From assembly GCA_964016885.1 (NCBI GenBank), contig OZ024740.1, forward strand, positions 411,246,001 to 411,310,000: 64,000 nucleotides of DNA, read 5' to 3'. The translations under genes and the position numbers were made by a program. Positions 7,958 to 61,737 of this stretch are shown in pieces. This DNA is from Eledone cirrhosa. Lineage: Eukaryota. The notes beneath the pieces are model-generated. The model ran no database searches and was not told the origin of the DNA. It saw nothing but the letters and a program-made list of their open reading frames with translations. Numbering within the stretch: position 1 is the first letter of the stretch; each line of letters opens with the position of its first letter.

Positions 7958-7958
<1 letters not shown>

Positions 7959-18638: not shown

Positions 18639-18639
<1 letters not shown>

Positions 18640-24917: not shown

Positions 24918-24965
<48 letters not shown>

Positions 24966-25207
24966 TTTTCTTTATTAACCACAAGGGTTCACATAAAGTA
25001 GACATTAAGGACAGTACAGGACAATACAGGACGGTACAAATGAGCATTTCTGCGTGTAAAAAAACAGAGGTTGAAATAAAATAACAAAGAAAAATTCCCC
25101 AATAGGGGGGAGACTTCCAAGGGACATTTGTGGAGAAAGCCCATTAAAAGACCACAGTGGCCCTGACCACCAGGGCAAGTGCCCTCTCCCAGTTTTCCAC
25201 CTTTAAT

Positions 25208-28200: not shown

Positions 28201-28506
28201 GTCTCCGCTGGTCACGTCCAGCACCACCAACTTACCCTCTGGGTCCAGGAAGATGGCCCGTATGGCGAGATACAAACCTCTCCGAAAAAGCACAGCAACT
28301 CCTTCCCCCGATCCAGGACGGCTGGGAGATGCGTACACATCGTAGCCGCCGAAGATCGGTGCGAAGACCCGTGCTTCGGAGATTCTGGTCTCGCTGATGG
28401 CCACTACATCTATGTTTAGTGACCTGAGGTCGTTGAGCAGGTGACCCTGCTTCCATGACGACCCCAAGCCACGCGCATTTATGCTGCCTATTCTGAGTGA
28501 GGTCAT
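25208..28506 (-). pseudogene. Tx1-A1 ORF2 APE-RT, disrupted
   Basis: SINARG/ISET/VYAP/GDWN/YLDR/TDH (APE); FRPITLLN, DQSKAFD, RQGCPLS (RT); CPRC...ETVLHALVQC. Confidence 0.9.
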
Positions 28507-28541
28507 GTTTAAAATAGAGTGGTAAAGATGGGAAAGACCAC

Positions 28542-30646: not shown

Positions 30647-30861
30647 GTTGTTTTTTTGTTTAAAATAAATATTGGGCACAAAACCCCAATAAGCAGTTAT
30701 TTAACCCCGAAGGGCCAAATAACGGACAGAAAGATCCCTCTCACGAGGAGGAGGGTGTTTTTGTCTACAAGTTGGTTAAAGTTTTAAACAATTTACAATT
30801 GTTATAGCGGTCAAAATTTACAATATCTTACAGAGCCGAGCCTCCGTCAACCATAGCATTC

Positions 30862-30903: not shown

Positions 30904-31088
30904 CACTGAAGAAGGATACAAATATTTAGGTGTTCTGGAGGCAGAGGGCATCAAGAACAAAAAAATGAAGGAATTGATAAGATCTGAGTACATTAAGAGA
31001 GTAAGGAGCGTATTAAAATCACATCTGAACTGCAGGAATGTCATAAGTGCAGTGAATTCCCGAGCTGTGTCTATTTTTAGGTATAGTG

Positions 31089-31265
31089 GATTGGCAGTAT
31101 CGGTAGAGGGTCGGACGCCATGCTTTCCAGCATAGTTACGTCCCTTTACTATCTGAGTTCAAATCCCGCCGAGGTTGACTTTGCCTTTCATCCTTACGGG
31201 GTCGATAAAATAAAGTACCAGTAATGCACTGGGAAATTTCTGGCCTTGTGCCTAAAGTAGAAACA
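31089..31265 (+). mobile_element. tRNA-derived SINE copy 1 inside Dong A6, 16-bp TSD
   Basis: A-box-like TGGCAGTATCGG; B-box GAGTTCAAATCC; TSD ATTTTTAGGTATAGTG (31073-88) / ATTATTAGGTACAGTG (31266-81). Confidence 0.88.
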
Positions 31266-31357
31266 ATTATTAGGTACAGTGCGGGAATTCTGAAATGGAA
31301 TGTTGCTGATGAAAAAGAAATGGATAGGAAGACTAGGAATCTATTATTATTATTATT

Positions 31358-31545
31358 AGGGCGGTGAATTGGCAGTATCGGTAGAGGGTGAGACACCATG
31401 CTTTGACGCATAGAGTTACGGCCCTTGCCATTCTGAGTTCAAATCCCGCTGAGGTTAACTTTGCCTTTCATCCTTACGGGGTTGATAAAATAAAGTACCA
31501 GTAATGTACTGGGTAATTGCTGGCCTTGTGCCAATAGTAGAAACA
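31358..31545 (+). mobile_element. tRNA-derived SINE copy 2, flanked by (ATT)n
   Basis: GGGCGGTGAATTGGCAGTATCGG...GAGTTCAAATCCCG...CTTTCATCCTTACGGGGTTGATAAA...GGCCTTGTGCCA. Confidence 0.88.
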
Positions 31546-31563
31546 ATTATTATTATTATTATT

Positions 31564-34500
31564 GGTCTAAGCGGACGTATTTTGCTCGCTCACAGTAAGT
31601 CGCTTTATTTGCTTGTTTAAATTATTTGTTGTTAAATATTTCTTGTTGTGTAAGGGATATAAGCCCTTAGACTTTGCCCCGTGAAGGGGAAAGTATAATA
31701 TTTGGGCCTTTTGGCCCAAATATTTGAACTTATTTTTACATGTTAAAAAATTTACGAAGAAAAAAAAACATGGCTGATCCACGCCCCAGCGATATGTCGG
31801 CTGTCATGCGACAACGACGTAGAAGTTGAGAGAGCGCTACAGCGAAATTAACACACATTGATAACACAAACACCACCACAAACAAGGTAAACAAAGACAC
31901 CAATAAGAACTCTAATTTGAAAAAAAATGACAGTAACAGCGACAACGAAAATGCAGATTACAAAAAAAAAAAATAACAAATACAACAACAATATCAACAC
32001 CACTAACATGAAAACAAATAGCGACAACACCAACAGCAACAATACCAACTGCACCGAGAACAACGGTGGCAGCAAAGACAACAATGTTAACAGCGACAGT
32101 GCTAACAACAACACCAACAATAACAACGTCAACAACACCCCCAACGAAAACAAGACCACTTTCGCTGCGGCAGCAGCAGAAATGAGGCCATGCTTCAACA
32201 TGGACCTCTCAAACAAAGATGAAAAGTTGGCCCAGGCATGGAAGCTCATCAAGCAAGAGCAAACTTGGGCCAACTTAACTGTCCCGGTAGAAGCTATTGA
32301 GGCAGTGGAGCACAAAACGGTGCATTATAGATGCATCTCAGCACAAACCAAAAGGGCAGCGTTAATCCCACAAGAAGATGTCGAAGTCGCGCTGAGGTGC
32401 ATCAGAGAAGACACCCAGTACATAGAGAGGGGCAGACAGTACGGCACCATTTCGGTGTTGTTCAAGTCAGAAGCCCTCGCGATGAAACAAGCCATGACTC
32501 CTTGCAAAACCAGCAAGGTCATAATGTACCCCTCCCACATGGGAAAAAGAACGGCCCGTCTCCGCATTCCCAGAATCCCACCAGGACTTGACATGTGGTG
32601 GCTTATAGGATGTGTGATTGTGGAGGGGACGGATACAGTCCCTATAGAAGTGACCAGAACGGCCAGAGAGGACTGGTCCGGGGTTGACCTGGAGATCCTT
32701 CTCCAGATCAGGCCCGAGAATGTGAAGACAATCCCAGACCACATCCGCCTTCAGAATGGGACTGTCATTCACATTATGACCGAAGGCAAAAGGCCGCAGT
32801 GTTTTGTTTGTGGGGAAAAAACCCATTTGCGAGCCTTCTGCCCTCAAATGCTGAAAGAGGCAAGGGGTCGAAAAGCTCCACTGCTGCCGACGCCGGGGCG
32901 AGGACCTCAACCAACACCTAAACCGCAAAACCACCAACAACAACACCAATAGAAAGACCACCACCAACATTGACCACGCAGGAGGGAAACGAGGAAAGCT
33001 GTCAAATTCCCCCTCACCCCAAAATTACACACACACCAATAAAACCTTAAACATACATACAGACACACTTTCAGAAACAGACCCCTCATCTACCAGTAGT
33101 GAAAATGAGGGAAATACAAAATGCCCCAAAATACAAAAAAGAAAACACAAAAAGAAAAAAAAAACTCAACAAAGCACAAAAGCACCCACAATAAAAAACG
33201 CAGACACCAACCACGCAAACATCTCTCCAATAACACCAACATCAACACGACCATCACCATCACCAGAATCCCCCAAACGCAAACAACCGAAACAGAGGCA
33301 AGAACAAATATACACACAAACATCTGAAACCAGACATCGCACTCACAACAAACACAGATACAACCGAAACAACACCACCAAAACCATCACCACCACAACC
33401 ACGCAAACAAATAAAATTACACCAACAAAACATACAAAACTTCGTGCTCGTCAGGAGCGCCAACAGGGAACTGATGGCCCTCGTAGCACGAAGTGAAAAT
33501 ATACAAAAAGAGGGGTAAATGTTTAAATCGAGAACATTTCGCGTGCCGGAAGATTTGGTTCTGGTGCGAATGTCGCTCGACATATTCAAAGAAATACGAG
33601 AGAGCTTTCCTCGGAACGTGGGAACACCGAACGTAAAACCCACTTCAAGACTTTTAAAGGAGTTCCCAAAAGAAACCCCACTAACTATGGAGGTCGAACA
33701 ACCCGACCTTCACAAGAGCCCGGAAGGTAAGTAAACCTGCATCTCTCTCTGTTTAACCTGCCAACATGGCCGTATTAAGAGTAGGATGTTTAAATGTTCG
33801 AGGCCTGGGATCGTCCTGGAAGCAGGGTCACCTTCTCAACGACCTCAGATCTATAGAAATGGATGTAATTGCAGTCAGTGAGACCAGGATTTCCGACTTG
33901 CGCGCACTAGCCCCCATTTTCGACGACTATCAGATCTTTGCATCTATTAGCCAGCCGGGAATGAGAGGCGGAGTGGCAGTGCTGTTCAGGAAAGGCCTGG
34001 ATCTCGAGGTAAGGTCGATCTTCCGAGACCCGGACGGGAAGTTGGTGGTCCTGGACGTGATCAATAATGAAGGTGGTGCCTTTAGACTGGTGGCCGTCTA
34101 TGCTCCTACTGGGGCAGGACGGCCGGACTTCTTTAGACGCCTGGAAGTCTTTCTGCGTACGTTTCGCCCTTTACTGTTAGCGGGGGACTGGAACGGCATC
34201 TTAGACGCACGCTGGGACTGTGTGGGAGTATCCGATAGGAGCGGGGGGTGCAAAAGCCTCAAGAACCTGATCAGCCAGTTCCAACTGTCTGACAGGTACC
34301 GACTAGATTTCCCTAATGCGCCAGTGTGGACCTGGGCTAACCGCATAGGGTCATCTAGATCGTATATAGACAGCATATTCATTAGGAAAATAGACAGAAA
34401 TAGTGTAAGCCGTCCACGTTTTGAAACGGTCGCCTATTCAGCTCACAAGTTTGTGATCTGTATGGTCAACCTAGATAAGACGCGTAGGTTAGGACCTGGT

Positions 34501-37235
34501 TACTGGAAGCTAAACATGTTATTTCCGGCACGCAAGGCTTACAGGGACCAGGTCAACAATTTAGTTAAGGAAAGTTTGACAGGGAGAGTCGTCAACAATA
34601 GATGGTGGGGGGCTCTCAAAAGAGAGATTAGAGTAATGTCGATAGAGTTTAGCAAAGAAGTAGCATTAGAGAAAAATAGAAGGGAGGGAGAGTTGGTAGA
34701 TAAGTTAGACGAGGCTATTGGTAGTGGCATTGCAACTGATGTGCTAGCGGCAAGAATGGCATTAGACCATTTCTTCAATGCGAAACACGAAGGTTGCATT
34801 GTCAGAGCTAAGGCGCGTGCTCTGAGAAACGGGGGAACCAAAGCTGTTCGATGGGCCCACGTAGCAGAGGCGCGGCGTGGTAATAAAACCACGATTTGGT
34901 CTTTGACGGACCGAGACCGGCTCGAGCTGACCGATTCCAAGAGGATGTGTGAGGCCTTTCGCCAACATTTTGCTCGGATGTTCGGGGGAAGTGGCGGGTC
35001 AGAGATGGTGGTGGACTTCAGTCCCTACCTCGATGGCTTGCCGCAACTCTCGACGGCTGACGCTGGGCGCTGCGAAAAGCCAATTACTTCAGCCAAGATT
35101 CAGGATGCCCTTATAGGCTGCATGAGGCGCAAGTCACCCGGTTTGGATGGTCTGCCCTACGAGCTTTACGTAAATATGCCAGACTTGTTCTCCACATACT
35201 CGAAGCGCTCTACTGCAACTGGCAGTAAAACGGGAGTATTCCCAGTTCAGTGAGCCGGGGCGTAGTGACGCTGATAAGGAAAGACGAGAACAAGAGGGAC
35301 ACATTAGACAATTTCAGGCCCATAACTCTGCTGAACGCAGAGTTTAAGATTTTGGCCAGGGTGTTAGCGAAGGTTGGCGCTTGTCATCGGGGATTTGGTT
35401 GGGGAGGCGAAAACTTGCGCAATCTCAACCAGGTTCATACACGACAACCTCCACCTAATGCGATACATCATAGAGAGGGTAGGGCGTAAACCTGGCTTCG
35501 GTGAGGCTCTGATCAATTTAGATCAATCGAAAGCATTTGATAGGGTCGACCATCGGTACATGTAGGCTGTCCTGAAGGCGGCTGGATTCGGCCATGTCTT
35601 CAGAAGCTGGATCGCTGCAATGTACAGCGGCACCTGCTCGATGGTCAAAATTAATGGCCACCTCTCGGAACCGTTTCAGGTCTCCCGATCGGTCCGCCAA
35701 GGGAGCCCTCTCTCCTCCCTTCTGTACGTATTGACTCTCGAGCCTTTACTGCGGAAGCTGGAGCTGTTGCAGGGCATCCCGCTCGAACCGGGACGCGGAA
35801 AGGCTGTGTCGGCTTATGCGGACGACATAACCTTGATGGTGTCGGACACCTCAGATATCGAGGTGGTCGGCAACTTATTGGACGAATATGAAAGGTTGAC
35901 GGGAGCAAAACTTAACCCGGAAAAGTCAGTGGGCTTGCAACTCGGCACCTGGAGAGGCAAGTCCATGCCGTCCAACAGCGTCGTTAGGAGCTGGACGGAC
36001 GGACCGGTAAAGTTGCTAGGGGTTTGGTTCGGGCTAGACCTCCAGGTGGATAAGAATTGGGACGAGGTGACGGGCAGGGTAGTCAGTCTCACCCAGAATG
36101 AAGCTATCACTGAAAGGTCGGGCGGAGGTGGCGAACGGGTACATCGCATCCGTCATCTAATTCCGTCTGACTGTCGTCCCTTGCCCCCGTTCAAGCCTTG
36201 CCATCTTGGAGCGGCTCCTCTTCAAATTCTTGTGGAGGGGTCAAGAAGAGACCGAGACTGGGTGACTGGCATCTGGAATGTTGCCAGGCACTCACTGCCC
36301 TCTACCAGGCGGGCAATGCGGTCAGTGTAACTTCCACTCTCGAGTTCTATAGAGGATTAGCGGTGGGAAAGTGCGGCGACGCACTCGGAGAGGCTCTGTG
36401 AGTCAACCAGGTCGAACTAACCAGTCTGTACCGGAGGACTTTCGAGCCGGAGACGATGGATAATTTCCAAAAATCCCTCGCTTGGCAGTGCTACCGGGGG
36501 GCACTACCGGTTCGAGATAAACTCTACAGGCACGGAAGTGCTGTCAGACGGACCTGCCCGAGATGCGCGCAGAGCGACGAAACCGTTCTGCACGCACTCG
36601 TCCAGTGTCCGTGCATTACTGACTTGTGCAGTTATGTTGAACAGCTGTTGTCGCGTGTAGAACGGATCCGGCTATCGGCCGAGTCCATAGTGAAGATCGA
36701 CCCACCGCCTTCTTTTGGCCAGGAAGGGCCGGCAATTTTCCTCTGTCTGGTGGCAGTAGCGAAAGCGGTTGTATGGTGGACGAGGTTGAAAGGACTGAAG
36801 ACAGACACTTTTCTCTTCGGCCAATCCCTCATCAACTTTTTCAAGTTTCACTTGGAAAGGAAGGTGCGGGTGGAGAGAGAAGTGCTGCCCCCCCCCCCCC
36901 CCCCCCCAGTACATTTGCTGAAAGGTGGGTGAATGTGGCGAGAATGGCCCGTGTGGGTGGGCCGAATCTGGTCATGCGGCTGTAGGTAGGTAAATTTGAA
37001 GAGGAGATGGGTGCCCTTCCAGGGTTCTCTCGAAGCGTCGGGTCGTTCAGGACTGGTGGGGTACCTGAGCGAACCCTAGGTGGTCATCCCCCCTATTGGG
37101 GAATGTTTTCTTGTTGTATTTTGTTATTGTTACTTTGTTTATTCATATTGTTTACTCGATTTTTCTGTAAAGCCCCACTGTCCCAGTCTTTTGTATTGTC
37201 CCCTATATGTCGGCCCTTGTGGCCAATAAATGAAA

Positions 37236-37237
<2 letters not shown>
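31564..37237 (+). mobile_element. Tx1-clade LINE family B, full length, degraded (ORF1 31770-33734; ORF2 33766-36985)
   Basis: ORF1 CFVCGEKTHLRAFC; ORF2 APE, WKLN, RT YADD and CPRC..H..C; (ATT)n on both sides. Confidence 0.9.
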
Positions 37238-37267
<30 letters not shown>

Positions 37268-40200
37268 GAATGCTATGGTTGACGGAGGCTCGGCTCTGTA
37301 ATATATTGTACATTTTGACCGCTATAACAATTGTAAATTGTTTAAAACTGTAACCAACTTGTAGACAAAAACACCCTCCTCCTCGTGAGAGGGGTCTTTC
37401 TGCCCGTTATTTGGCCCTTCGGGGTTAAATAACCGCTTATTGGGGTTTTGTGCCCAATATTTATTTCAAACAAAAAAAAACAACATGGCTACGAAAAAGA
37501 ATTTTCATAGGTCACTCCCACTCATTCCGTCTTCTTCTTCCTCAATCGTCACTACAGCAGAGAGAAGATCGTCTCTCTCCCTCCCTTCGCTTTCGCAAAC
37601 AACGACATAAAAGAAAAATCTCGTGCAAAGCGTACAAGATTTTTCACGACGACGACGACAACGACGAAACAGGTGTGCGGGAAATACGAAAACCCATTTC
37701 ATTCGTCTGACGTCAGGAATAATAGCAGTCGCAGCCGTAATAACAACAGCAACAGTGACAAGTAAAACAACAGTAGCAGCCGCAACAGCATCAGCAGCAG
37801 CATAAACAACAACAGCATTAGCAGCAGCAACAACAACAACAACCACAGCAACAGCGGCGGCGGCAGTAGTCGTAGTACCTGCCGCAACAACAAAAGTAAC
37901 AGCAGCTCTGACGACAACAACAACAACAACAGCAGCAAAGAAAAACCAATCTCGTTTGCAGGCTTCGCAAAGAACCTGGAAACCATCCTCATAACAAATG
38001 AGGAATTACAGGAAGCGAAGAAGATGGTGAGAAAAACTGGACACCGAGCAATCTGCAAGGCAGCCGAAAAATGTTTCGAAACCCAACAGCACTGTACGGT
38101 CACGTACCGTACAGTAAGTACAAAATCCCGTAGGGTTGAAAGAGCCACAGAGGCTCAAATACAACAAGCTTTGGGGTCTGTGTGGCAGCGGAAAACGCAC
38201 ATCACCCGAGGCAAAAAATATGCCACCGTAGACGTACAGGAAGCAAAGGCTCAATCCTTAGTGACCCTAAGGAGCGAGGATATGGTGTTGGTGCCCCCCT
38301 ACTGCGGGGAAAAAATTGTGAGGGTCAAACTGACCCCCCCCCCCCAGGATGGCCCCTTCTTGGCTGGCCGCGTCTGTCCTCGTCGGAATCGAGGAGAAAA
38401 CAACTGTACTGCAAGTACAGAAAAAAGTAAGAGAAGATTGGGTCGGCACCTCTATTGAGATGTTAATCCAAACCAACCAGGAGTGCATCGAAGCTATCCC
38501 GGATGTGATAGACTTCGATAACGGCACTCAACTGCCCATAAGTGTTGAGGGCAAACGCCCGAAATGCTTTCGCTGTGGATCGAAGACTCACCTCAGGGCC
38601 TTCTGCAACGAGAAGACCCTGAGAAAGGAGAAAACCCCCCTCCTTCCGAAACCGGCTCCACGGCTACCAGCAACAGGACAAGCGGCAACCAGGAACGATA
38701 GGTCCGTGGCACCCATACCCACGCCACGGAAATCAAAAACAGCAGCAGCAGTGGAAGTATTAACAACAACAACAGCAATACCAAATGCAGCGGCAACAGA
38801 GACACCAGTGCAAACATCACCAAAAACAACAAGTGAAAGAGTGGAGCTGGTACCCCTCCACGACCTCACAGAATCAGACATGGAGTGTGAGGTGGGAGAG
38901 GGATGGCAAAAGGTCGTAAGAAGGCACAAACACAGAAGCAGCGCATCGTCGCCTTCGAAAAGGGAGGAAAGAAATGAAAAAAGGGTAAAGTCTACTGCAA
39001 AGAGACTCACAGCAGCAACACCACCAACACCATCACCACCCACACTAGCACCACCATCACCACCGGCGACAACCCCACCGCCAACAACAACAACAACTTC
39101 AACACCACCACCACAAGCACCAACATCGCAAACACAACAACAAAATACACACACCCAGCAACAACGACAAAAAAAAAGCAGAACCACACCCCACCCCCAG
39201 AAAAAAAATGCACGGCAATAAATACACACAACAAGAAACTAATGACTTACATAATTGAACACACAGACATTTCACAACAGGACTACATAATACCAGCACC
39301 AATCAAAACGCCAACTAACATAAGACTGCTAAAAATAGCACAGAAACAATACACAAACATTAAAACGAAATTCCCCAACGCAGTTGGTGATTTCAGCGAC
39401 CTAGGAGGAACCATTAATCGAAGAGTATATTCAGACATTCTCTTAGAAGAGCCGACGACCAGCCGAAGGGACAATTCAACGGTCCCTTCACCAGACGATC
39501 AATTGAAAAGGGATGTAAAAACCATCTCTCCTCTACCAAAAGTACGGTAAGTGGTCTTTCCCATCTTTTCCACTCTATTTTAAACATGACCTCACTCAGA
39601 ATAGGCAGCATAAATGCGCGTGGCTTGGGATCGTCATGGAAGCAGGGTTACCTGCTCAACGACCTCAGGTCACTAAACATAGATGTAGTGGCCATCAGCG
39701 AGACCAGAATCTCCGAAGCACGGGTCTTCTCACCGATCTTCGGCGGCTACGATGTGTACGCATCTCCCAGCCGTCCTGGATCGGGGGAAGGAGTTGCTGT
39801 GCTTTTTCGAAGAGGTTTGTATCTCGCCATACGGGCCATCTTCCTGGACCCAGAGGGTAAGTTGGTGATGCTGGACGTAACCAGCGGAGACGGGCAAGCT
39901 TTCAGGCTAGTGGCCGTCTATGCCCCGACAGGAGCAGGGCGGCCTGATTTCTTCCGGCGTCTGGAGACCTTTCTTGGAACGTCCCACTCTTTAGTGTTAG
40001 TAGGCGACTGGAACGGGATCTTAGATGCACGCTGGGACTGTGTGGGATTAGCGGATAGGGAAGGAGGGTGCAAGAGCCTCACCAACCTGCTCAGGCGTTT
40101 TGAACTGTCTGACAGGTACCGATTGGATTTCCCGAATGTGCCAATGTGGACTTGGACAAACCGCATAGGGTCATCCAGATCATATCTAGATAGAGTATTT

Positions 40201-42880
40201 TGTAGGGAAATAGATAGGTCTGGCATAGGCTGTCCACAATTCAAGATAGTCAGCTACACGGACCACAAATTCGTGATTTGTGTGCTTGACTTAGATAGGC
40301 TTCATAGACGAGGACCCAGCTACTGGAAGCTAAACGCGTCCTTACCAGCGCGCAAGGCCTACAGAGACCGGATTAGCGAACTAGTTAAGCGGGCGTTGAC
40401 GGGGGCCATCGTCAACATGTGGTGATTTTCTCTGAAAAGAGCGATTAGAATAGAATCCATTAGGTTTAGTAAGGCTTTAGCAATAGAGAAAAAGAGAGTA
40501 GAGGGAGAACTAGTTAGAAAATTAGACGAGACGCTTAGCAAAGGCATTGCGGCCGACGTACTTGCGGCGAAATTGGCCCTTGACCAATTCTTCAATGCAA
40601 AGCACGAAGGCTGCGTTGTCAGAGCTCGGGTGCGTGCTCTCAGACACGAGGGGACGAAAGCCGTTCAATGGGCCCGAGTGGCGGAGGCGCGTCATGGCAA
40701 CAAAGCCACGATCCGGTCTTTGGTGGACCACGACGGGCGCATGCTACTCGATCCCGGGCAAATGTGTGAAGCTTTTCAGCGACACTTCACTCAGCTGTTC
40801 GGGGGCAGCAGTGGGCCGGATCGAGGGATGGACTTTAGTGTCTACCTCGACGGACTGCCGCGGCTCTCGGCCACTGAGGCGGAGTGTTGCGAAAAGCCGA
40901 TAACAGCCGCTGAAGTAAGGGAGGCAATGACTGGCTGCACAAGGGGTAAATCACCTGGTTTGGATGGTCTGCTCTATGAAATTTACGTACAGATGCCAGA
41001 CTTGTTCGGAGGCCTCTTGGCGGACGTCTACTGCAACTGGCAACAGAACGGGAGAATTCCCAGTTCTGTGAGCCGAGGAGCGGTGGCACTGCTGAGAAAG
41101 GATCCGAACAAGGGGGATAACATAGATAATTTCAGGCCCATAACTCTGCTAAACTCAGAGTTCAAGATTTTGGCCAAGGTGCTAGCAAAGAGGTTGGCGC
41201 TTGTCGTTGGTGGTCTGGTGGGAGAGGCGCAGACATGCGCCATTCCCGACAGATCCATCCACGACAACCTCCACCTCATGCGATACATCGTAGAGAGGGT
41301 AGCTAGGGAACCTGGCACGGATGGGTCCTTGATCAATTTAGATCAGTCGAAAGCGTTCGATAGGGTCGACCATCGTTACTTAGCGGCAGTCCTGAGGGCG
41401 GCTGGCTTTGGTCCCGTCTTCAGAGGTTGGATCGCTGCCACTAAGAGAATACGAAGCGGTGACAGGAGCAATGATGAACCAGGAAAAGTCAGTGGGCCTG
41501 CAGCTCGGCACCTGGAGAGGCAGGTCCATGCCGTCCAACAGCGTCGTCGGACGCTGGACGGAGGGACCGATTAAATTGCTAGGGGTCTAGTTCGGTCCGG
41601 ACCTCCAGACGGACAAAAACTCGGACGAGGTGACGAGCAGGGTGGCTTCTCTCACCCAGAAATGGGCGGAGAGGAAGCTATCCCTGAAAGGTCGAGCGGA
41701 GTTGGCTAACGCGTACATCGCATCTGTCATCTGCTACCGCCTGACCGTCGTACCTTGTCCTAAGCCTCTCCTGACTGCGCTGGAGCGTTTGCTCTTTCGC
41801 TTTTTGTGGAAGGGACGCACTCCGATGGTCAGGCGCTCCTACTGTTGTCAACACCCGCTACGTGGAGGGCTGGGCATGCCGTGGCTGATGATCCGCAGGC
41901 ACGCGCTTAGGCTACATCTCCACCTCTTCCTCGACGGTGATCAGGTGTGGTCGCCGTTTGCTAAACACGTATTTCCTGGGTCAAGCGAAGACCGAGTGGG
42001 AGCGCTTGGAGACTGGAATGTCTTCAGGCACTCACAAACCTCGACCAATCGGGCAATGTGATCGGTGGAAACTCCACCTTGGCGTTCTATAGAGGATTAG
42101 TGGAGGGGAAGAGCGACGACGTACTTGGAGAAATTCTAGGCGTCGACGAAAATCAACTAGCCAATCTCTTCGGAAGGACTTTCGGGCCGTGGCCTATGTA
42201 CAACTTCCAGAAATCCCTGGCCTGGCAGTGCTACCGAGGAGCCTTGCCAGTTCGGGATAAACTCTACAGGCATGGAGGTGCCGTCAGCCGGGCATGTCCG
42301 AGATGCGCGCAGGGCGACGAAACCGGCTATCATCTGAGTCCATCGTGAGGATTGCCCCGCCCTCCTCCTTTAGCCGGGAAGGGCAGGCAGTTTTTTATCT
42401 TTCTGGTGGCCATGGCGAAAGAGATAGTATGGTGGACACGTTTGAAAGGGCTGAAGACGAGCACTTACCTCTTCGGTGATGCCCTGATTGAATTTTTCAA
42501 ATTGTATTTGAAAAGGAAAATCAGAGTAGAGAGGGAAGTGCTCTCTTCCCAGCATTTTGTTGAAAGATGGGTGAGAGAAGCAAGAATGGCCCGTGTGAAT
42601 GGGCCTACTCTGAGTATATATCTGTAAATTAAAGGTGGAAAACTGGGAGAGGGCACTTGCCTTGGTGGTCAGGGTCACTGTGACCTTTTACTGGGCTTTC
42701 TCCACAAATGTCCCTCCGAAGTCTCTCCCCTATTGGGGTAGTGTTCATTGATACTTTTTGTTACATTCTCTGTATTTGTTTTTTACACGCAGAAATGCCC
42801 ATTTGTACCGTACTGTATTGTCCTGCACTGTCCTTAATGTCTACTTTATGTAAACCCTTGTGGTTAATAAAGAAATCACC
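37268..42880 (+). mobile_element. Tx1-A copy 2, full length (ORF1 37485-39550; ORF2 39586-42627; RT core deleted at ~41440)
   Basis: Colinear with A1 and A3; (ATT)n at 37238-37267 and 42881-42898. Confidence 0.9.
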
Positions 42881-42898
42881 ATTATTATTATTATTATT

Positions 42899-45800
42899 GA
42901 ATGCCATGGTTGACGGAGGCTCGGCTCTGTAAGGTATAGTAATTTTTAACCGTTAAAACAATTGTAAATTGTTTAAAACTTGAACCAAATTGTTGATAAA
43001 GACACCCTCCTCCTCGTGAGAGGGGTCTTTCTGTCCGTTATTTGGCCCTTCGGGGTTAAATAACCGGTTATTGGGGTTTTGTACCCAATATTCATTTTAA
43101 ACAAAAAAACATGGCTACGAAAAAGAAAGTTCATACGTCACTCCCACTCATTCCGTCTTCTTCTTCCTCAATCATCACTACAGCAGAGAGAAGATTGTCT
43201 CTCTCCCTCCCTTCTTTAAATGTGTCTCTCTCCCTCCCTTCTCTTTCGCAAGTGACGAAAGAAAAGAAAAGTCTCGTGCAAAGCGTGCAAGGTTTCTCCA
43301 CGACAACGACGACAGCGACGAAACAGGTGTGCGGGAAATAAGAAAACCCAGTTCATTCGTCTGACGTCAGGAATAATAGCAGTAGCAGCCGTAATAACAA
43401 CAACAACAGTGACAATGTAAACAACAGTAGCAGCCGCAACAGCATCACCAGCAGCATAAACAACAACAACATTAGCAGCAACACCAACAACAACCACAGC
43501 AACAGCGGCGGAGGCAGTAGTCGTTATACCTGCAGCAACAACAAAAGTACCAGCAGCTCTGACGACAACAACAACAATAGCAGCAAAGAAAACCAATCTC
43601 ATTTGCAGGCATTGCGAAAAACTTGGAAACAATCCTCATAACAAATGAGGAATTAGAGGAAGCGAAGAAGATGGTGACAAAGAATGGACACCGACCAATC
43701 TGCAAGGCAGCGGAAAATTTTTTCGAAACCCAACAGCACTGTACGGTCACGTACCGTACAGTAAGTACAAAATCCCGTAGGGTGGAAAGAGCCACAGAGG
43801 CTCAGATACAAAAAGCCTTGGGGTCTGTGTGGCAGCGGAAAACCCACATCACCCGAGGTAAAAAATATGCCACCGTAGACGTACTTTTTGCCACACCCCA
43901 GGAGGCAAAGGCCCAATCAGTAGTGACCCTAAGGAGCGAGGAAATGGTGTTGGTGCCCTCCTACTGCGGGCAAAAAATTGTGATGGTCAAACTTACCCAC
44001 GTCCCCCCCGGAATGGCCCCTTCTTGGCTGGCCGCGTCTGTCCTCGTCGGAATCGAGGACAAAACAACTGTACTGCAAGTACAGAAAAAAGTAAGAGAAG
44101 ATTGGGTCGGCACCTCCATTGAGATGCTAATCCAAACCAACCAGGAGTGCATCGAAGCTATCCCGGATGTGATAGACTTCGATAACGGCACTCAACTGCC
44201 CATAAGTGTTGAGGGCAAACGCCCGAAATGCTTTCGCTGTGGATCGAAGACTCACCTCAGGGACTTCTGCAACGAGAAGACCCTGAGAAAGGAGAAAACC
44301 CCCCTCCTTCCGAATCCGGCTCCACGGCTACCAGCAACAGGACAAGCGGCAACCAGGAACGATAGGTCCGTGGCACCCATACCCACTCCACGGAAATCAA
44401 AAACAGCAGCAGCAGTGGAAATATTAACAACAATAACAGCAATACCAAATGCAGCTGCAACAGAGACTCCAGTGCAAACATCACCAACAACAACAAGTGA
44501 AAGAGTGGAGCTGGTACCCCTCCCCGACCTCACAGAATCAGACATGGAGTGTGAGGTGGGAGAGGGATGGCAAAAGGTCGTAAGAAGGCACAAACGCAGA
44601 AGCAGCGCATCGTCGCCTTTGAAAAGGGAGGAAAGAAATGAGAAAAGGGTAAAGTCTACTGCAAATAGACCCACAGCAGCAACACCACCAACACCATCAC
44701 CACCCACACTAGCACCACCATCACCACCGGCGACAACCCCACCGCCAACAACACCTTCAACACCACCACCACAAGCACCAACATCGCAAACACAACAACA
44801 AAACACACACACCCAGCAACAACGACAAGAAAATAGCAGAACCACACCCCACCCCCAGAAAAACAAATGCACGGCAATAAATACACACAACAAGAAACTA
44901 ATGACTTACATAATTGAACACACAGACATTTCACAACAGGACTACATAATACCAGCACCAATCAAAACGCCAACTAACATAAGACTGCTAAAAATAGCAC
45001 AGAAACAATACACAAACATTAAAACGAAATTCCCCAACGCAGTTGGTGATTTCAGGGACCTAGGAGGAACCATCAATCGAAGAGTATATTCAGACATTCT
45101 CTTAGAAGAGCCCACGACCAGCCGAAGGGACGATTCAACGGTCCCTTCACCAGGCAATCAAGTGAAAAGGGATGTAAAAACCATCTCTCCTCTACCAAAA
45201 GTACGGTAAGTGGTCTTTCCCATCTTTTCCACTCTATTTTAAACATGACCTCACTCAGAATAGGCAGCATAAATGCGCGTGGCTTGGGGTCGTCATGGAA
45301 GCAGGGTCACCTGCTCAACGACCTCAGGTCACTAAACATAGATGTAGTGGCCATCAGCGAGACCAGAATCTCCGAAGCACGGGCCTTCGCACCGATCTTA
45401 GGCGGCTACGATGTGTACGCATCTCCCAGCCGTCCTGGATCGGGTGGAGGTGATGCTGTGCTTTTTCGGAGAGGTTTGGATCTCGCCATACGGGCCATCT
45501 TCCTGGACCCAGAGGGTAAGTTGGTGGTGCTGGACGTGACCAGCGGAGACGGGCAAGCTTTCAGGCTAGTGGCCGTCTATGCCCCGACAGGAGCAGGGCG
45601 GCCTGATTTCTTCCGGCGTCTGGAGACTTTTCTTGGAACGTCCCGCTCTTTAGTGTTAGTGGGCGACTGGAACGGGATCTTAGATGCACGCTGGGACTGT
45701 GTGGGATTAGCGGATAGGGGTGGAGGGTGCAAGAGCCTCACCAACCTGCTCAGGCGTTTTGAACTGTCTGACAGGTACCGATTGGATTTCCCGAATGTGC

Positions 45801-48800
45801 CAACGTGGACTTGGACAAATCGCATAGGGTCATCCAGATCATATCTAGATAGAGTATTTTGTAGGGAAATAGATAGGTCTAGCATAGGCTGTCCACAATT
45901 CAAGATAGTCAGCTACACGGACCACAAATTCTTGATCCGTGTGCTTGACTTAGATAGGCTTCATAGACGAGGACCCGGCTACTGGAAGCTAAACGCGTCC
46001 TTACCAGCGCGCAAGGCCTACAGAGACCGGATTAGCGAACTAGTTAAGCGGGCGTTGACGGGGGCCATCGTCAACAACAAGTGGTGGTTTGCTCTGAAAA
46101 GAGCGATTAGAATAGAATAGATTAGGTTTAGAAAGGCTTTAGCAATAGAGAAAAATAGAACAGAGGGAGAACTAGTTAGAAAATTAGACGAGGCGCTTAG
46201 CAAAGGCATTGCGACCGACGTGCTTGCGGCGAAATTGGCCCTTGACCAATTCTTCAATGCAAAGCACGAAGGCTGCGTTGTCAGAGCAAGGGTGCGTGCT
46301 CTCAGACACGAGGGGACGAAAGGCGTTCAATGGGCCCGAGTGGCGGAGGCGCGTCGTGGCAACAAAGCCACAATCCGGTCTTTGGTGGACCACGACGGGC
46401 GCATGCTACTCGATCCCGGGCAAATGTATGAAGCTTTTCAGCGACACTTCGCTCAGCTGTTCGGGGGCAGCGGTGGGCCGGGTAGAGGGATGGACTTTAG
46501 TGTCTACCTCGACGGACTGCCGCGGCTCTCGGCCACTGAGGCGAAGTGTTGCGAAAAGCCGATAACAGCCGCTGAAGTAAGGGAGGCAATGACTGGCTGC
46601 ACAAGGGGTAAATCGCCTGGTTTGGATGGTCTGCCTTATGAACTTTACGTACAGATGCCAGACTTGTTCGGAGGCCTCTTGGCGGACGTCTACTGCAACT
46701 GGCAACAGAACGGGAGAATTCCCAGTTCTGTGAGCCGAGGAGCGGTGGCACTGCTGAGAAAGGACCCGAACAAGGGGGATAACATAGATAATTTCCGGCC
46801 CATAACTCTGCTAAACACAGAGTTCAAGATTTTGGCCAAGGTGCTAGGAAAGAGGTTGGCGCTTGTCGTTGGTGGTCTGGTGGGAGAGGCACAGACATGC
46901 GCCATTCCCGACAGATCCATCCACGACAACCTCCACCTCATGCGATACATCATAGAGAGGGTAGCTAAGGAACCTGGCACGGGTGGGTCCTTGATCAATT
47001 TAGATCAGTCGAAAGCTTTCGATAGGGTCGACCATCGTTACCTAGCGGCAGTCCTGAGGGCGGCTGGCTTTGGGCCCGTCTTCAGAGGCTGGATCGCTGC
47101 CATGCACAGCGACATCTGCTCTGTGGTGAGAGTGAACGGTCACCTGTCGGAACCGTTCAACATCATGCGCTCGGTCAGCTAAGGATGTCCCCTCTCGTCC
47201 CTCTTGTACGTATTGACTCTCGAGCCATTACTGCACAAACTGGAGACGTTGAGGGGAGTCCCGCGCGAACTAGGATGCGGAAGATCCGTGTCAGCATATG
47301 CGGACGATGTCACCGTAGTGGTGTCGAACGCCAAACACATCGAGGCGATCGGCACTACACTAAGAGAATACGAAGCGGTGACAGGAGCAATGATCAACCA
47401 GGAAAAGTCAGTGGGCCTGCAGCTCGGCACCTGGAGAGGCAGGTCCATGCCGTCCAACAGCGTCGTCGGGCGCTGGACGGACGGACCGGTTAAATTGCTA
47501 GGGGTCTGGTTCGGTCCGGACCTCCAGACGGACAAAACCTGGGACGAGGTGACGAGCAGGGTGGCTTCTCTCACCCAGAAATGGGCGGAGAGGAAGCTAT
47601 CCCTGAAAGGTCGAGCGGAGGTGGCGAATGCGTACATCGCATCCGTCATCTACTACCGCCTGACCGTCGTACCTTGTCCTAAGCCCCGCGCCTGACTGCG
47701 CTGGAGCGTTTGCTCTTTCGCTTCTTGTGGAAGGGACGCGCTCCGATGGTCAGGCGGTCCATCTGCTGTCAACACCCGCTACGTGGAGGGCTGGGGTTGC
47801 CGTGGCTGATGATGCGCAGACACGCGCTCAGGCTACGATACCTCCACCTCTTCCTCGTCGGTGATCAGGTGTGGTCGCCGTTTGCAAGACACGTTTTTCC
47901 CCAGCTCGTCTCCTTGACGGAGCTGCAGTCCTGGGTCAAGCGAAGACCGAGAGGGAGCGCTTGGAGACTGGAATGTCTTCAGGCGCTCACAGACCTCGAC
48001 CAATCGGGCAATGTGATCGGTGGAAACTCCACCTTGGCGTTCTATAGGGGATTAGTGGAGGGGAAGAGCGACGACGTACTTGGAGAAACTCTAGGCGTCG
48101 ACGAAAATCAACTAGCCAATCTCTTCGGAAGGACTTTCGGGCCGGGGCCTATGGACAACTTCCAGAAATCCCTGGCCTGGCAGTGCTACCGAGGAGCTTT
48201 GCCAGTTCGGGATAAACTCTACAGGTATGGAGGTGCCGTCAGCCGGGCATGTCCGAGATGCGCGCAGGGCGACGAAACCGTCCTGCACGCACTCGTCCAG
48301 TGTCCGAGCATTGCTGACTTGTGGGTTTATGTCGAACACCTGCTGTCACGTGTAGGACGGATCCAGCTATCAGCTGAGTCCATCGTGAGGATTGCCCCGC
48401 CCTCTTCCTTTAGCCGGGAAGGGCAGGCAGTTTTTATCTGTCTGGTGGCCATGGCGAAAGAGATAGTATGGTGGACACGTTTGAAAGGGCTGAAGACGAG
48501 CACTTACCTCTTCCTGAAAAGGAAAATCAGGGTAGAGAGGGAAGTGCTCTCTTCCCAGCATTTTGTTGAAAGATGGGTGAGAGAAGCAAGTATGGCCCGA
48601 ATGAATGGGCCTTCTCTGAGTATGTGTCTGTAAATTAAAGGTGGAAAACTGGGAGAGGGCACATGCCCTGGTGGTCAGGGCCATTGTGGTCTTTTAATGG
48701 GCTTTCTCCACAAATGTCCCTCGGAAGTCTCCCCCCTATTGGGGAATTTTTCTTTGTTATTTTATTTCATCCTCTGTTTTTTTACACGCAGAAATGCCCA

Positions 48801-48875
48801 TTTGTACCGTCCTGTATTGTCCTGTACTGTCCTTAATGTCTACTTTATGTAAACCCTTGTGGTTAATAAAGAAAA

Positions 48876-48876
<1 letters not shown>
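42899..48876 (+). mobile_element. Tx1-A copy 3, full length (ORF1 43111-45209; ORF2 45245-48633, disrupted)
   Basis: APE, WKLN, YADD and CCHC; tail (ATT)n at 48877-48927. Confidence 0.92.
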
Positions 48877-48927
<51 letters not shown>

Positions 48928-48930
<3 letters not shown>

Positions 48931-48988
48931 AAATAAAGTACCAGTAATGAACTGGGTTATTGCTGGCCTTGTGCCTAAAGTAGAAACA
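48928..48988 (+). mobile_element. 5'-truncated SINE copy 3 with (ATT)n tail to 49024
   Basis: ATAAAATAAAGTACCAGT...GGCCTTGTGCCTAAAGTAGAAACA matches the 3' half of SINE1/2. Confidence 0.85.
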
Positions 48989-49024
<36 letters not shown>

Positions 49025-50078
49025 GACTATCTACAACATGTTCCACAAGAGGATTGATGTCGATAGACTCTACTAAAAGAGATATGAATGTGGAATAGGT
49101 CTTATCAGCATAGAGGACTGTGTTCAGATGTAGAAAAACAACCTGCACAAATACGTGACCGACAGTAGGGAGCCAATGCTCAGAATTGTACTGAAGGAGA
49201 GAACAATAGGCCAGGGGATGTCAAAGGAGGAAATAACAACAAGGAGGAAGAGCAACCTTCATGAACAATCCCTTCATAGTACCTTCTTTGAGAAAACTGA
49301 ATTCAGAGATCCACAGACATGGAACTGGTTAAATAGAGGAGACCTTTAAAAGGCTACAGAAGGAATGCTAATGGCTGCGCAAGAGCAGGCCCTCTAAATG
49401 AAGTGGGTGAAACACCATATTTACAAGGAAGAGGCTAACCCACTGTGTAGGATCTGTGGAGAGAGAGAGAGGAGATTGTGGCTCACATTGTATCCGAGTG
49501 TAAACACCTAGCCCAGACTCATTATAAAGGCTGGAGACATGATGTGACGGGCAGGGTGATCCACTGGCATCTATGCAAAGTAAACAATTTACCACTTACT
49601 GAGAAGTGGTATGAGCATAAGCCAGAGTCGGTGATAGAAATCGATATGGTGAAGGTGCTGTGGGATTTTAGGATACAGACGGATAAGAAACTGGAACACA
49701 ATAGGCCTGACCTGGTGGTTTTGGACAAGGAAAATAGATCGTGCCTGACTGTAGATTCGACACGAGAGTGCAAGAAAAGGAGAGGGAGAAAATTAACCGA
49801 TACCAGGACTTAAAGTGGGAGCTAAAAGGGATTTGGAACTGCCATGAAGTCAGAGTCGTCCCGATTGTCATAGAGGCACTAGGTACTATCTCAAAAAGTT
49901 TCCAGGGATGCCTGAAGAAAATTGGCCCCGCCCCGCTTTTTGGAACACTTCAAAAGTAATGCTTGCTGGGAACAGCAAGAACCCTCCGATACGTCCTGAA
50001 TATGTGAGGCTGCAGGTAGCGGCTTGATATTCATTTCAACAAACTTTCCAGTTAAATCATGACTGAGACTCAAAGAAC

Positions 50079-50164
<86 letters not shown>

Positions 50165-50168
50165 TAAT

Positions 50169-50501
50169 GATTTCTTTATTAACCACAAGGGTTTACATAA
50201 AGTAGACATTAAGGACAGTACAGGACAATACAGAGCGGTACAAATGGGCATTTCTGCGAGTAAAAAAAAACAAGAAACAGAGGATGTAATAATAGAACAA
50301 TGAAAAAATTCCCCAATAGTGGGGAGACTTCCGAGGGACTTTGGTGAAGAAAGCCCATTAAAAAGCCACCGCTTCGTATTTTCTTAGTGTAGTGCCGATC
50401 GCCTCGATGTATTTAGCGTTCGACACCACTACGGTGACATCGTCCGCATATGCTGACACGGATCTTCCGCATCCTAGTTCGCGCGGGACCCCCTCAACGT
50501 C
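50169..50501 (-). mobile_element. Tx1-A copy 4: 3' UTR joined to a 130-bp RT fragment (internally deleted and truncated)
   Basis: 50169-50369 matches 24965-25155; 50370-50501 matches ~26479-26610. Confidence 0.85.
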
Positions 50502-50699
50502 TTTTGATTATAGATCAAGTCAAGTGCTATTTTCTTTTTAGTTGTTATTCAGCATCATGTATTTACATCAACAACTATGTTTAGATCTGACGTTATTTAA
50601 TGGAGATTTCTTTGTTAGCTAATTTAAGACCCCTCGAACAATCCATCCCTGAAAAATGAGCCATCTATGTTCCCTAGGCCGAATACCACAGTTATATGT

Positions 50700-52221: not shown

Positions 52222-52405
52222 GTGTGATGGATTGGCAGTATCGTTAGAGTCGCACAATATGCTTCGCGGCATAGAGTTCAAATTCCGCCTAGGTTAGCTT
52301 TGCCTTTCATCGTTATGGAGTTGATAAAAGAAAGTGCACAGTGGTTGATTAATCGATTTTCCCCTTCCCCCAAAATTGCTGACCTTGTGCTTAAATCAGA
52401 AACCA
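52222..52405 (+). mobile_element. Older copy of the same SINE family
   Basis: ATTGGCAGTATCGTTAGA...GAGTTCAAATTCCG...CTTTCATC...GACCTTGTGC...GAAACC. Confidence 0.8.
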
Positions 52406-54486: not shown

Positions 54487-54600
54487 GTATGTATGTATGT
54501 ATGTATGTATGTATGTATGTATGTATGTATGTATGTATGTATGTATGTATGTATGTATGTATGTATGTATGTATGCATGTATGTATGCATGTATGTATGT
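54487..54600. repeat. (TATG)n
   Basis: Direct reading. Confidence 0.97.

Positions 54601-58789: not shown

Positions 58790-61737
<2,948 letters not shown>

Follow-up and report, generated by a model that had tools for sequence, protein, structure and literature searches.

Dong of Bombyx mori, DongAg and DongBg are described as LINEs specific for TAA microsatellites, with a single ORF that encodes a reverse transcriptase (RT), a CCHC motif and a restriction-like endonuclease (PMC3812793). In Octopus vulgaris, Dong-R4 elements are numerous and have been active in recent times (PMC13282606, Table 1). Among Tx1 LINEs, Kibi, Koshi and crocodilian Tx1 elements have two ORFs and enter (TC)n, (TTC)n and (TTCC)n/(TTTC)n, respectively, in one polarity (PMC4494074). 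Microsatellites may in turn be born from retrotransposon tails, a retrotransposition event making a repeat that later elements interrupt, and L1 is known to make pure-tail (poly(A)) insertions (PMC3812793).

The locus described here lies in a 64-kb stretch of Eledone cirrhosa DNA (the window). Its Dong/R4-like LINEs appear to share the single-ORF organisation and the microsatellite target of Dong, DongAg and DongBg, but in contrast to those elements, as far as they are described in PMC3812793, one copy hosts a second system that has the same repeat as its target, read on the opposite strand. The second system consists of Tx1-like LINEs which, as in Kibi, Koshi and the crocodilian elements, have two ORFs and insert into a microsatellite in one polarity; their target, however, is (ATT)n, which is absent among the Tx1 targets named in PMC4494074, their host is an octopod, and families that differ by about 25% retain a common 3' hairpin. 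No description of ATT-specific Tx1 elements was found in the literature searched. As in the tail-born microsatellites of PMC3812793, a retrotransposition event seems to have made the repeat that later elements interrupted, but in contrast to the L1 poly(A) births treated there ATT is repeated here, and the elements that make the new run would have it as their specific target.

A nested stack within a Dong/R4-like element

The stack comprises 17,679 bp between two halves of one Dong/R4-like LINE copy (A6), split between CTATT and GAC. All its elements have plus orientation and are spaced by (ATT)5-17: three Tx1-like LINEs, one SINE and the 61-bp end of another. The features of the locus are as follows.

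24963..30861, minus strand: Tx1-A1, in the AAT array
30904..31345, plus strand: A6 5' half, Dong/R4-like LINE, 5'-truncated (RT-thumb region), split by SINE1, ends in CTATT
31073..31088, plus strand: 16-bp target-site duplication of SINE1, left copy, read directly; 2 mismatches to the right copy (31266-31281)
31089..31265, plus strand: SINE1, slightly 5'-truncated, at the first CTATT site of A6
31343..31357, plus strand: (ATT)5 at the left edge of the stack; not followed by a GAC... duplication
31358..31545, plus strand: SINE2, full length; A-box-like motif 31370-31381, B-box-like motif 31437-31445, 3' hairpin 31521-31533
31546..31563, plus strand: (ATT)6
31564..37237, plus strand: Tx1-B; ORF1 with CCHC knuckle, ORF2 with APE, RT and zinc finger
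37238..37267, plus strand: (ATT)10
37268..42880, plus strand: Tx1-A2, ends full-length; internal deletions, including 257 bp and 85 bp
42881..42898, plus strand: (ATT)6
42899..48876, plus strand: Tx1-A3, least decayed in the stack; ORF1 43111-45209, ORF2 45245-48633, 3' hairpin 48852-48864
48877..48927, plus strand: (ATT)17
48928..48988, plus strand: SINE3, 3' 61 bp only
48989..49024, plus strand: (ATT)12, right border of the stack
49025..50078, plus strand: A6 3' half; CCHC, RHD, restriction-like endonuclease region and 3' UTR; 5 stops
50079..50168, plus strand: (AAT)30, tail of A6
50169..50502, minus strand: Tx1-A4, 3' 200 bp plus a 137-bp internal RT piece, in the AAT tail of A6

The 5' half of A6 ends in GGAATCTATT (31345) and the 3' half restarts with GACTATCTAC at 49025, exactly where an earlier note, made from the letters alone, had placed the break and the restart. 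The uninterrupted site, GGAAGCTATTGACTATCTAC, is found in all five other Dong-A copies of the window, with zero bases lost or gained. Feature mapping likewise bore out the order given in that note, namely SINE2, Tx1-B, Tx1-A2, Tx1-A3 and a truncated SINE3, all in plus orientation and separated by (ATT)n. Since the sister copies give the state before insertion to the base, the locus records how a 4-6-nt site can become a specific microsatellite target, with a later growth of 17.7 kb. The 5' half of A6 carries a further interruption, SINE1 (31089-31265), which the note had omitted.

The Dong-like copies have an RVT_1 domain and CCHC and RHD motifs, with the APE family absent from the pieces scanned, and among solved structures R2 proteins are nearest to them (E 2e-25 vs 3e-14 for L1). 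A PD..D..K motif is visible by eye, although it was missed by the pattern search, and the Pfam nuclease match is weak (E 0.28). Each of the seven Dong-like copies in the window has an (AAT)n end on the plus strand, and they stand head to tail. Taken together, the predicted single ORF with RT, CCHC and restriction-like endonuclease, the lack of APE, and the AAT tails and target correspond to the features of Dong/R4 (RLE) LINEs; from their architecture and target, A6 and its relatives are probably Dong/R4. A derivation of Dong 5' regions from Tx1 5' ends was considered and dropped, the matches being 14-28 bp long and of low complexity.

In the Tx1-like LINEs the domains Exo_endo_phos, RVT_1 and zf-RVT were found, along with a single CCHC knuckle in the ORF1 of each of A2, A3 and B. 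Human L1 ORF2p is the closest solved structure to their RT (E 1e-22, vs 5e-12 for R2) in a comparison made up of the 10 best matches, all L1 or R2 proteins, with RTE, CR1 and I outside it; no Tx1-named entry occurs among the 120 homologues listed. The CCHC of ORF1, the APE-RT-zinc finger order of ORF2, the L1-nearer RT and the target preference mark these elements as probable members of the Tx1 clade. Deletions at short homologies are frequent in the stack elements, and Tx1-B (3' hairpin at 37212-37224) is decayed, with 4 stops and several frameshifts.

Both halves of A6 cluster with copy A5, apart from the young copies (support 99/98 and 100/99), with terminal branches of 0.063 and 0.067 and like amounts of private change (15/239 vs 55/1027 columns, p=0.53), which disposes of the suspicion that they belong to different subfamilies. 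The 78-bp middle piece of A6, taken alone, has the derived state in common with A5 at 0 of 3 sites. It is hardly credible that two unrelated Dong pieces were joined here or that the region is misassembled. Such an error would fit the shortness of the A6 5' half (245 bp) and the lack of a locus-spanning read or contig among the matches listed in the sequencing runs compared, but it is at odds with base-exact contiguity, with halves that agree in subfamily and branch length, and with inserts that each have private lesions of their own and ordinary ends.

The LINE inserts have diverged less than their host. Private change amounts to 140/5449 in Tx1-A2 and 106/5449 in Tx1-A3 vs 58/1038 in A6, and the LINE inserts as a group stand at 1.9-2.9% vs about 5.4% for A6, all of these private divergences setting upper limits, as they are not measured from the master copies. 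For Tx1-B the comparison is with four contigs of another organism (50/1723 nt, 2.9%); four further contigs covering its ORF2/3' region, in sequencing run X1, are 4-10% distant. Stop codons agree when the LINE inserts are pooled (8/3200 vs 5/405 in A6, p=0.010), although the stop density of Tx1-B alone is not significantly below that of A6 (p=0.13). SINE copies are 6.6-11.4% apart, and the age order covers the three LINEs alone; for these, inserts older than A6 are contradicted. A6 is one element, and it is older than the three LINE inserts.

Birth of the ATT run

The reading that we favour, with a probability of roughly two in three, is that five retroelements entered (ATT)n one by one, that the run was seeded by copying of ATT alone and renewed at each insertion, and that Tx1-like enzymes drove both the LINEs and the SINEs. 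The junctions speak to the seed. When SINE1 inserted into this A6 copy, 16 bp of downstream target were duplicated, a length that is based on this one insertion, whereas no 8-mer of the downstream target recurs anywhere in the stack. At least 15 bp of ATT already lie 5' of each of the five elements, and the four surplus ATT units 5' of SINE2 can have come neither from a duplication nor from the target. Since each of the five has ATT on its 5' side and lacks a target duplication, the run seems older than all of them, unless the first one carried ATT at its own 5' end. The earlier note had held that the first insertion created an (ATT)n run where the Dong consensus has only TATT. The run is indeed new, the inserts came after A6 and the target was probably renewed each time; what fails is the founder, none of the five elements having the junctions of an ordinary one. 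No surviving element looks like such a founder, and an ATT-only or read-through insertion is the more likely seed.

We propose the following course of events. A Tx1-like APE endonuclease would nick the bottom strand at AAT/A, and the (AUU)n end of the RNA would pair with the target and prime reverse transcription. At the seeding step, the weakest of the scheme, cDNA with terminal AAT repeats would pair with the single upstream ATT; this cDNA might come from a tail-only copy or from a tandem-SINE read-through transcript cut short within its spacer, and the product would be CT(ATT)nGAC, lacking the duplication of about 16 bp that is otherwise made. Later elements would then enter the run, where an ATT duplication of about 16 bp plus any tail would leave a run on each side, so that the number of targets would rise by one per insertion, as the run lengths suggest (the shortest in the stack are 15, 18 and 18 bp). 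Tx1-like ORF2 would mobilise the SINE through a common 3' hairpin.

The sequence at both sites hit in A6 is TCTATT, and the ATT is the start of the SINE1 duplication as well as of the left run of the stack. CTATT occurs twice in the 3.5-kb Dong copy A4, at exactly the two sites hit in A6, a coincidence noticed post hoc and in which the T of one site is a private change. Elsewhere, SINE copies have ATT- or T-rich 5' flanks in three of the four sequencing runs compared, and head-to-tail SINE joints are present, among the matches listed, in 133 contigs of X17, 82 of X2, 1 of X1 and 49 reads of X21.

The run might instead have arisen without retrotransposition, by slippage during replication or through a minor duplication at the lone ATT, the five elements arriving later. 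It would yield CT(ATT)nGAC directly, and de novo birth from proto-repeats is among the routes recognised in PMC3812793. It is nevertheless unlikely here: the site holds one ATT unit, the adjoining two-unit site of A6 took a SINE and did not expand, and 5/5 sister copies are unexpanded at the split site. We regard as quite unlikely an origin from a first, conventional insertion with a 16-bp duplication that was afterwards lost, save for the run, by a deletion reaching from the ATT of its left duplication to its own tail. SINE1 is just such a conventional insertion at CTATT in A6, and the short-homology deletions common in these elements offer a means of removal, but an additional and traceless event is required.

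No locus-specific empty or intermediate allele occurs among the matches listed for 4 of 23 runs (30904-37700, left-hand junctions), in a comparison whose Dong and SINE parts are swamped by coverage from other copies; the 23 runs were screened by word content, with a best word share of 0.49 and none at half. By eye, no recognisable target duplication was seen for Tx1-A4 as founder of the entire array or for an old SINE at 52222.

Orientation and growth of the stack

In this one window, every Tx1-like copy whose 3' end can be seen (A1-A4 and B, five in all) borders an ATT run in sense polarity. Tx1-A1 and Tx1-A4, of the same family as Tx1-A2 and Tx1-A3 of the stack, lie on the minus strand in adjoining AAT runs; throughout the window, (ATT)n-tailed elements are plus in ATT runs and minus in AAT runs, and Dong copies are plus in AAT runs. 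The earlier proposal that the opposite polarity of the new run attracted the later elements does not hold up, the ATT/AAT duplex being the same target either way, as the positions of Tx1-A1 and Tx1-A4 illustrate. Polarity sets orientation only: the strand follows from tail pairing and does not cause attraction. Nor is a special attraction of any kind needed, because an urn model gives five or more hits a probability of 0.18-0.40, which makes five hits in a self-renewing target unremarkable. Dong copies are missing from the stack (0/5, vs 6/8 in the adjoining AAT array, p=0.02), an absence that a model with all runs equal does not predict.

These results bear on the literal form of the earlier proposal, in which a surviving element founded the run at TATT in the ordinary way, its tail became the run and the reversed polarity drew in the rest. 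SINE2 is leftmost in the stack, decay drops from left to right in the order B, A2, A3 (chance 1 in 6), and Tx1-driven SINEU insertions may show duplication, truncation or no change at the target (Kojima 2015, PMC4494074). This course of events is improbable all the same, given the four surplus ATT units, the presence of Tx1-A in adjoining AAT runs and the urn probabilities.

Template jumping between RNAs is a route by which several units can be inserted in one step. That most or all of the stack arose in this way, or by tandem duplication of Tx1-A, would suit units that all stand head to tail on one strand, but a single strand is expected anyway from tail pairing. Tx1-A3 differs from Tx1-A2 by 4.6% and is nearer Tx1-A1 (3.7%), and decay is unequal, with 47 non-synonymous changes in A2 vs 22 in A3 at 2191 sites (p=0.003). 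We consider a one-step origin very improbable, and the tandem duplication of Tx1-A2/A3 was dropped on these divergences. Under the favoured reading, of successive insertions into a self-renewing run, the pile itself follows the known rules of microsatellite-targeting retrotransposition.

A SINE and its candidate Tx1 partner

The SINE carries an A-box-like motif (2 mismatches allowed) and a B-box motif; ARAGORN and Rfam gave no tRNA match, and neither Rfam at the gathering threshold nor ARAGORN returned any match in the whole window. Over the SINE body, U2 gave a weak match (21 bits vs a cut-off of 46, E 0.058), which was dismissed as chance. SINE coverage is far deeper than that of Tx1-B in 4/4 sequencing runs compared, which is not a copy number.

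One and the same hairpin, with a CUUGU loop and C-G as its closing pair, stands 15-16 nt ahead of the tail in the SINE and in both Tx1-like families. The stems are compensatory: 30/32 cells are paired, against 12-56% in slid controls, and 3/4 pairs are changed on both sides, for a 4-bp stem that was spotted by eye (post hoc) in three independent families. End-anchored similarity of the SINE to Tx1 gives z of 2.4-4.1 (9/9 pairs with p<0.02), vs -1.6 to 1.7 for Dong or RTE ends (12/12 with p>0.05). Hairpin stability is not above that of shuffled sequences (z -0.65 to 0.79), and in a position-free search unrelated 35-mers elsewhere in the window score up to 30 vs 15-24 for Tx1 ends. On sequence evidence, the common 3' hairpin suggests that the SINE is Tx1-driven, and it is likely that the short elements borrow the enzyme of the long ones; a common 3' sequence and a compensatory stem-loop, as in a stringent SINE/LINE pair, appear to be present.

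Crocodilian SINEU and Tx1-Mar are the nearest parallel, a Tx1-mobilised SINE being inferred there too, from the common target, and with sequential tandem insertions that sandwich the duplication; in contrast to the putatively tRNA-like SINE studied here, which has hairpin and tail as in its LINE, SINEU has snRNA heads, and the account in PMC4494074 gives no LINE with the SINEU-1 3' end. A conserved loop on a variable, compensating stem in LINE and SINE is also seen in maize ZmSINE2/LINE1-1_ZM and Chlamydomonas SINEX-3/L1-1_CR (PMC3472496, PMC3747384), although the stretch in common here is much shorter than in these plant and algal L1-clade pairs, about 25 nt (PMC3472496). L1-clade tails occur in only 3 of 58 surveyed SINE/LINE pairs, all from plants or algae, and Table 1 of that survey contains no Tx1 element and no mollusc (PMC3472496). 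No description of a Tx1-tailed SINE in cephalopods was found in the literature searched.

In the O. vulgaris genome SINEs make up 11.6% and are mostly unclassified among the recent insertions (PMC13282606). The common 3' hairpin points to a LINE that may be the partner of a very abundant octopod SINE. We advance only tentatively the wider picture, in which this SINE would be the stringent partner of an (ATT)n-specific Tx1 through the CUUGU hairpin, tail-only insertions of the pair would found new ATT microsatellites at sites of 4-6 nt and, together with Dong, which reads the repeat on the opposite strand, the pair would form a two-clade, self-amplifying economy that gives rise to octopod TE hotspots, the present locus preserving the birth of one target. 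If this is true, one mechanism would tie together SINE expansion, the abundance of ATT/AAT repeats and TE hotspots in octopods.

The retroelement pile and its families

Positions 7896-50502 form a near-continuous pile of retroelements, parted by AAT or ATT runs. The seven Dong-like LINEs (copies A1-A6 and a second family, B) all lie on the plus strand with AAT runs as 3' ends, and have a reverse transcriptase (RT), a CCHC finger and an RHD motif; R2 proteins are their nearest solved structures. Tx1-like elements (copies A1-A4 and a second family, Tx1-B) carry an ORF1 with CCHC and an APE-RT-zinc-finger ORF2, to which L1 ORF2p is the nearest solved structure and an Argonauta hians protein (76% identity, half of the query covered) the nearest named among the matches listed. 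Both names, Dong and Tx1, were assigned by architecture and target. The window is animal DNA, likely octopod.

Features of the pile and its flanks
1-740, minus: 5' end of an unclassified element, in an AAT run
6357-6661 and 7347-7650: 305-bp inverted repeat pair (94%), with a relic inside that we take to be GIY-YIG-like
18639-20503, plus: second Dong-like family B, ending in an AAT run
30904-31345 and 49025-50078, plus: halves of Dong copy A6
50169-50502, minus: Tx1-A4, 3' 200 bp immediately abutting an internal RT piece of 137 bp
52222-52405: older SINE copy, longer middle segment, without a clean ATT tail
54600-56770: further LINE (RT match) between (TGTA)n and (GT)n tracts, presumably RTE-like
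58850-60170: decayed helicase-like coding relic, presumably Helitron-like
61301-61510: near-perfect palindrome, ~210 bp

Dong copies A2 (7958-8946) and A5 (20531-21406) are homologous over ~1 kb at their 5' ends, with 71-86% identity vs ~90% in the ORF. An A-rich run before ATGGC, ~170-220 nt into this region, resembles Tx1-like leaders, but the sequences are not truly homologous to those leaders. The element at 1-740 has an ATT/G junction and an A-run ATGGC leader, as in Tx1-like elements. A premature stop is common to Dong A1 and A2 (~2405, ~11525), though A1 otherwise groups with A3/A4, gene conversion or recurrence being possible readings; a GA run with 2 bp inserted is common to A5 and A6.

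In Tx1-A and Tx1-B a perfect splice-donor-like motif, GGTAAGT (~33735-33741, ~39555-39561, ~45212-45218), overlaps the ORF1 stop ~40 nt upstream of the ORF2 ATG, and GTAAG is additionally found early in several 5' leaders. Three different ORF2 deletions (17 bp in A1, 31 bp in A2, ~180 bp in B), spanning two families and each with short direct homology, end at nearly one point (~47930 in A3), possibly a fragile or template-switch site. The Tx1-A copies (24963-48876) are mosaic, with A3 the outlier over the first 1 kb and A2 over the last 1.5 kb, suggesting recombination among masters, or conversion. AATAAA stands 5-7 nt before the ATT run at Tx1-A and Tx1-B 3' ends (~37223-37228, ~48863-48868); no Tx1-A/B copy has a poly(A) tail, and the signal is absent from the SINE. 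The RT piece of Tx1-A4 comes from ~1.3 kb upstream, and this copy closes the array against unique DNA.

The split Dong copy and the age of its inserts

All five other Dong-A copies read an uninterrupted GGAAGCTATTGACTATCTAC, while A6 breaks at GGAATCTATT (31345) and resumes at GACTATCTAC (49025) with zero bases lost. The intervening stack of 17,679 bp reads (ATT)5, SINE2, (ATT)6, Tx1-B, (ATT)10, Tx1-A2, (ATT)6, Tx1-A3, (ATT)17, a 61-bp SINE 3' end (SINE3) and (ATT)12. The earlier note had described break, resumption and contents correctly. Missing from its account was SINE1 (31089-31265), which interrupts the A6 5' half too, with a 16-bp target duplication (2 mismatches). The nesting in A6 is real and well resolved, and of a known kind of mechanism.

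The halves do not belong to different subfamilies. In separate trees each groups with A5 against the young copies (support 99/98 and 100/99; the 5'-half tree excludes A2, which has an 81-bp deletion there), on terminal branches of 0.063 and 0.067, and private change is 15/239 columns in the 5' half vs 55/1027 in the 3' half (p=0.53). At sites separating A5 from A3/A4, the 5' half sides with A5 at 9 and with the young copies at 9, the 3' half at 46 and 27 (p=0.42 between halves). All nine A5-shared states of the 5' half fall within its first 167 bp, and the 78-bp piece adjoining the stack shares 0/3 sites with A5.

Nor are the LINE inserts older than A6, which has 58/1038 private changes (5.6%) vs 140/5449 (2.6%) in Tx1-A2 and 106/5449 (1.9%) in Tx1-A3 (p below 2e-6). 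Premature stops number 5 in 405 codons of A6, and 2/1008, 2/1128 and 4/1064 in Tx1-A2, Tx1-A3 and Tx1-B (pooled p=0.010; Tx1-B alone p=0.13). The Tx1-B ORF1 region differs from four contigs of another organism at 50 of 1723 nt (2.9%), its ORF2 and 3' end from four other contigs by 4-10%. On a scale of 0.09 = 25 My (PMC13282606), A6 would be very roughly 15 My old and the LINE inserts 3-8 My, both upper bounds at a borrowed rate. The SINEs are 6.6-11.4% apart and give no insertion order. Tx1-A2 and Tx1-A3 are independent insertions, because A3 is nearer A1 (3.7%) than A2 (4.6%) and non-synonymous private change differs (47 vs 22 of 2191 sites, p=0.003).

In none of the public sequencing runs did as many as half of the sampled sequence words occur (best 0.49). 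In 4/23 runs, compared with 30904-37700 (the left part of the locus), no locus-specific empty or partial allele was among the matches listed, and hence the order of events is not directly observed; the longer-middle SINE variant was also common in the runs compared.

Seeding and polarity of the ATT run

The earlier note proposed that the first insertion made an ATT run, which then attracted the rest by its opposite polarity. A run is indeed lacking at the target in 5/5 sisters, but none of the five elements is identifiable as founder. The SINE1 duplication begins at ATT and extends 16 bp downstream, so at the stack site the left side of an ordinary founder would show ATTGACTATC...; no downstream-target 8-mer is repeated in the stack, the sole fuzzy matches lying inside Tx1 RT genes. 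Each stack element is preceded by an ATT stretch no shorter than 15 bp, and the shortest three of the runs (15, 18 and 18 bp) match a ~16-bp duplication of pure repeat. On the simplest reading, CT(ATT)nGAC predated all five elements, or the first arrival carried 5' ATT.

Exactly the observed left junction would result if a cDNA with an AAT-repeat 3' end annealed to the lone ATT upstream; such a cDNA could derive from a tail-only copy or a read-through transcript of tandem SINEs. Pure poly(A) insertions are known for L1 (PMC3812793), and SINE3 exemplifies severe truncation at this locus. Tandem SINEs are common, with SINE-end/SINE-start joints in 133 contigs of sequencing run X17, 82 of X2, 1 of X1 and 49 reads of X21; overhanging sequence on the SINE's 5' side was ATT/T-rich in three runs, at an agreement of only 0.44-0.46. 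Possible alternatives are that the run arose by slippage, was left by a deleted founder, or followed a founder insertion without duplication, as occurs for SINEU (PMC4494074). We infer seeding by an AAT-ended cDNA of one of these two kinds as a plausible story. The 3,528-bp Dong copy A4 contains two CTATT sites, the very two struck in A6, where each reads TCTATT, a post hoc coincidence that hints at nick preference.

The polarity claim fared less well. ATT is on the sense strand in 8/8 Tx1-like and SINE copies of the pile, six on the plus strand (SINE1-3, Tx1-B, Tx1-A2, Tx1-A3) and two, Tx1-A1 and Tx1-A4, on the minus strand in AAT runs; the reversed run therefore sets strand, not insertion rate. 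Under an urn model adding one new target per insertion, at least 5 of 11-12 later insertions fall in the lineage with P = 0.18-0.40. Reversed polarity was not causal. Dong copies make up 0/5 in the stack vs 6/8 in the neighbouring AAT array (p=0.02), unlike equal use; perhaps Dong requires runs of greater length, or had lower activity at the time.

A 3' hairpin common to SINE and Tx1-like ends

Aligned by their tails, the SINEs and both Tx1-like families have in common CCTTGTG, placed 15-16 nt upstream of the ATT run (17-18 nt in A2). All six of these ends, when folded, give a hairpin with a CUUGU loop closed by C-G, on stems of AACC/GGUU (Tx1-A), GGCC/GGCC (Tx1-B) and UGGC/GCCA or GGC/GCC (SINE); the old SINE at 52222 folded into no such hairpin. 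Across eight sequences 30/32 cells are paired, with both-sided changes in three of four pairs, vs 12-56% paired in slid controls. Weighing against the hairpin, it was picked by eye, comes from three independent families only and has a stability no greater than that of shuffles. In end-anchored comparisons, SINE ends scored z of 2.4-4.1 against Tx1 ends (9/9 p<0.02) and -1.6 to 1.7 against those of Dong and RTE (12/12 p>0.05); a position-free search, which counts against the match, ranked unrelated 35-mers above the Tx1 ends.

Microsatellite targets on record include TAA for Dong, TC for Kibi and TTC for Koshi (PMC3812793), crocodilian Tx1 targets TTCC/TTTC, and Tx1-driven SINEU inserts sequentially in tandem (PMC4494074). 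In octopus, Dong-R4, L1-Tx1 and SINEs occur in large numbers and have been active recently (PMC13282606; PMC8967140). Of 58 shared-tail SINE/LINE pairs in one survey, three only have L1-clade tails (PMC3472496; PMC3747384), the pair table names neither Tx1 nor a mollusc (PMC3747384), and the partner LINEs of MetaSINEs are given as unknown (PMC4824008). Our literature search, with Repbase, supplements and several original papers outside it, found no ATT-specific Tx1 or Tx1-tailed SINE in cephalopods; such elements may already be curated in Repbase or supplements. Judging from hairpin, common target and common polarity, we consider it probable (roughly two chances in three) that Tx1-like elements mobilise the SINE; no testable lead from the locus is more interesting than the SINE-Tx1 hairpin.
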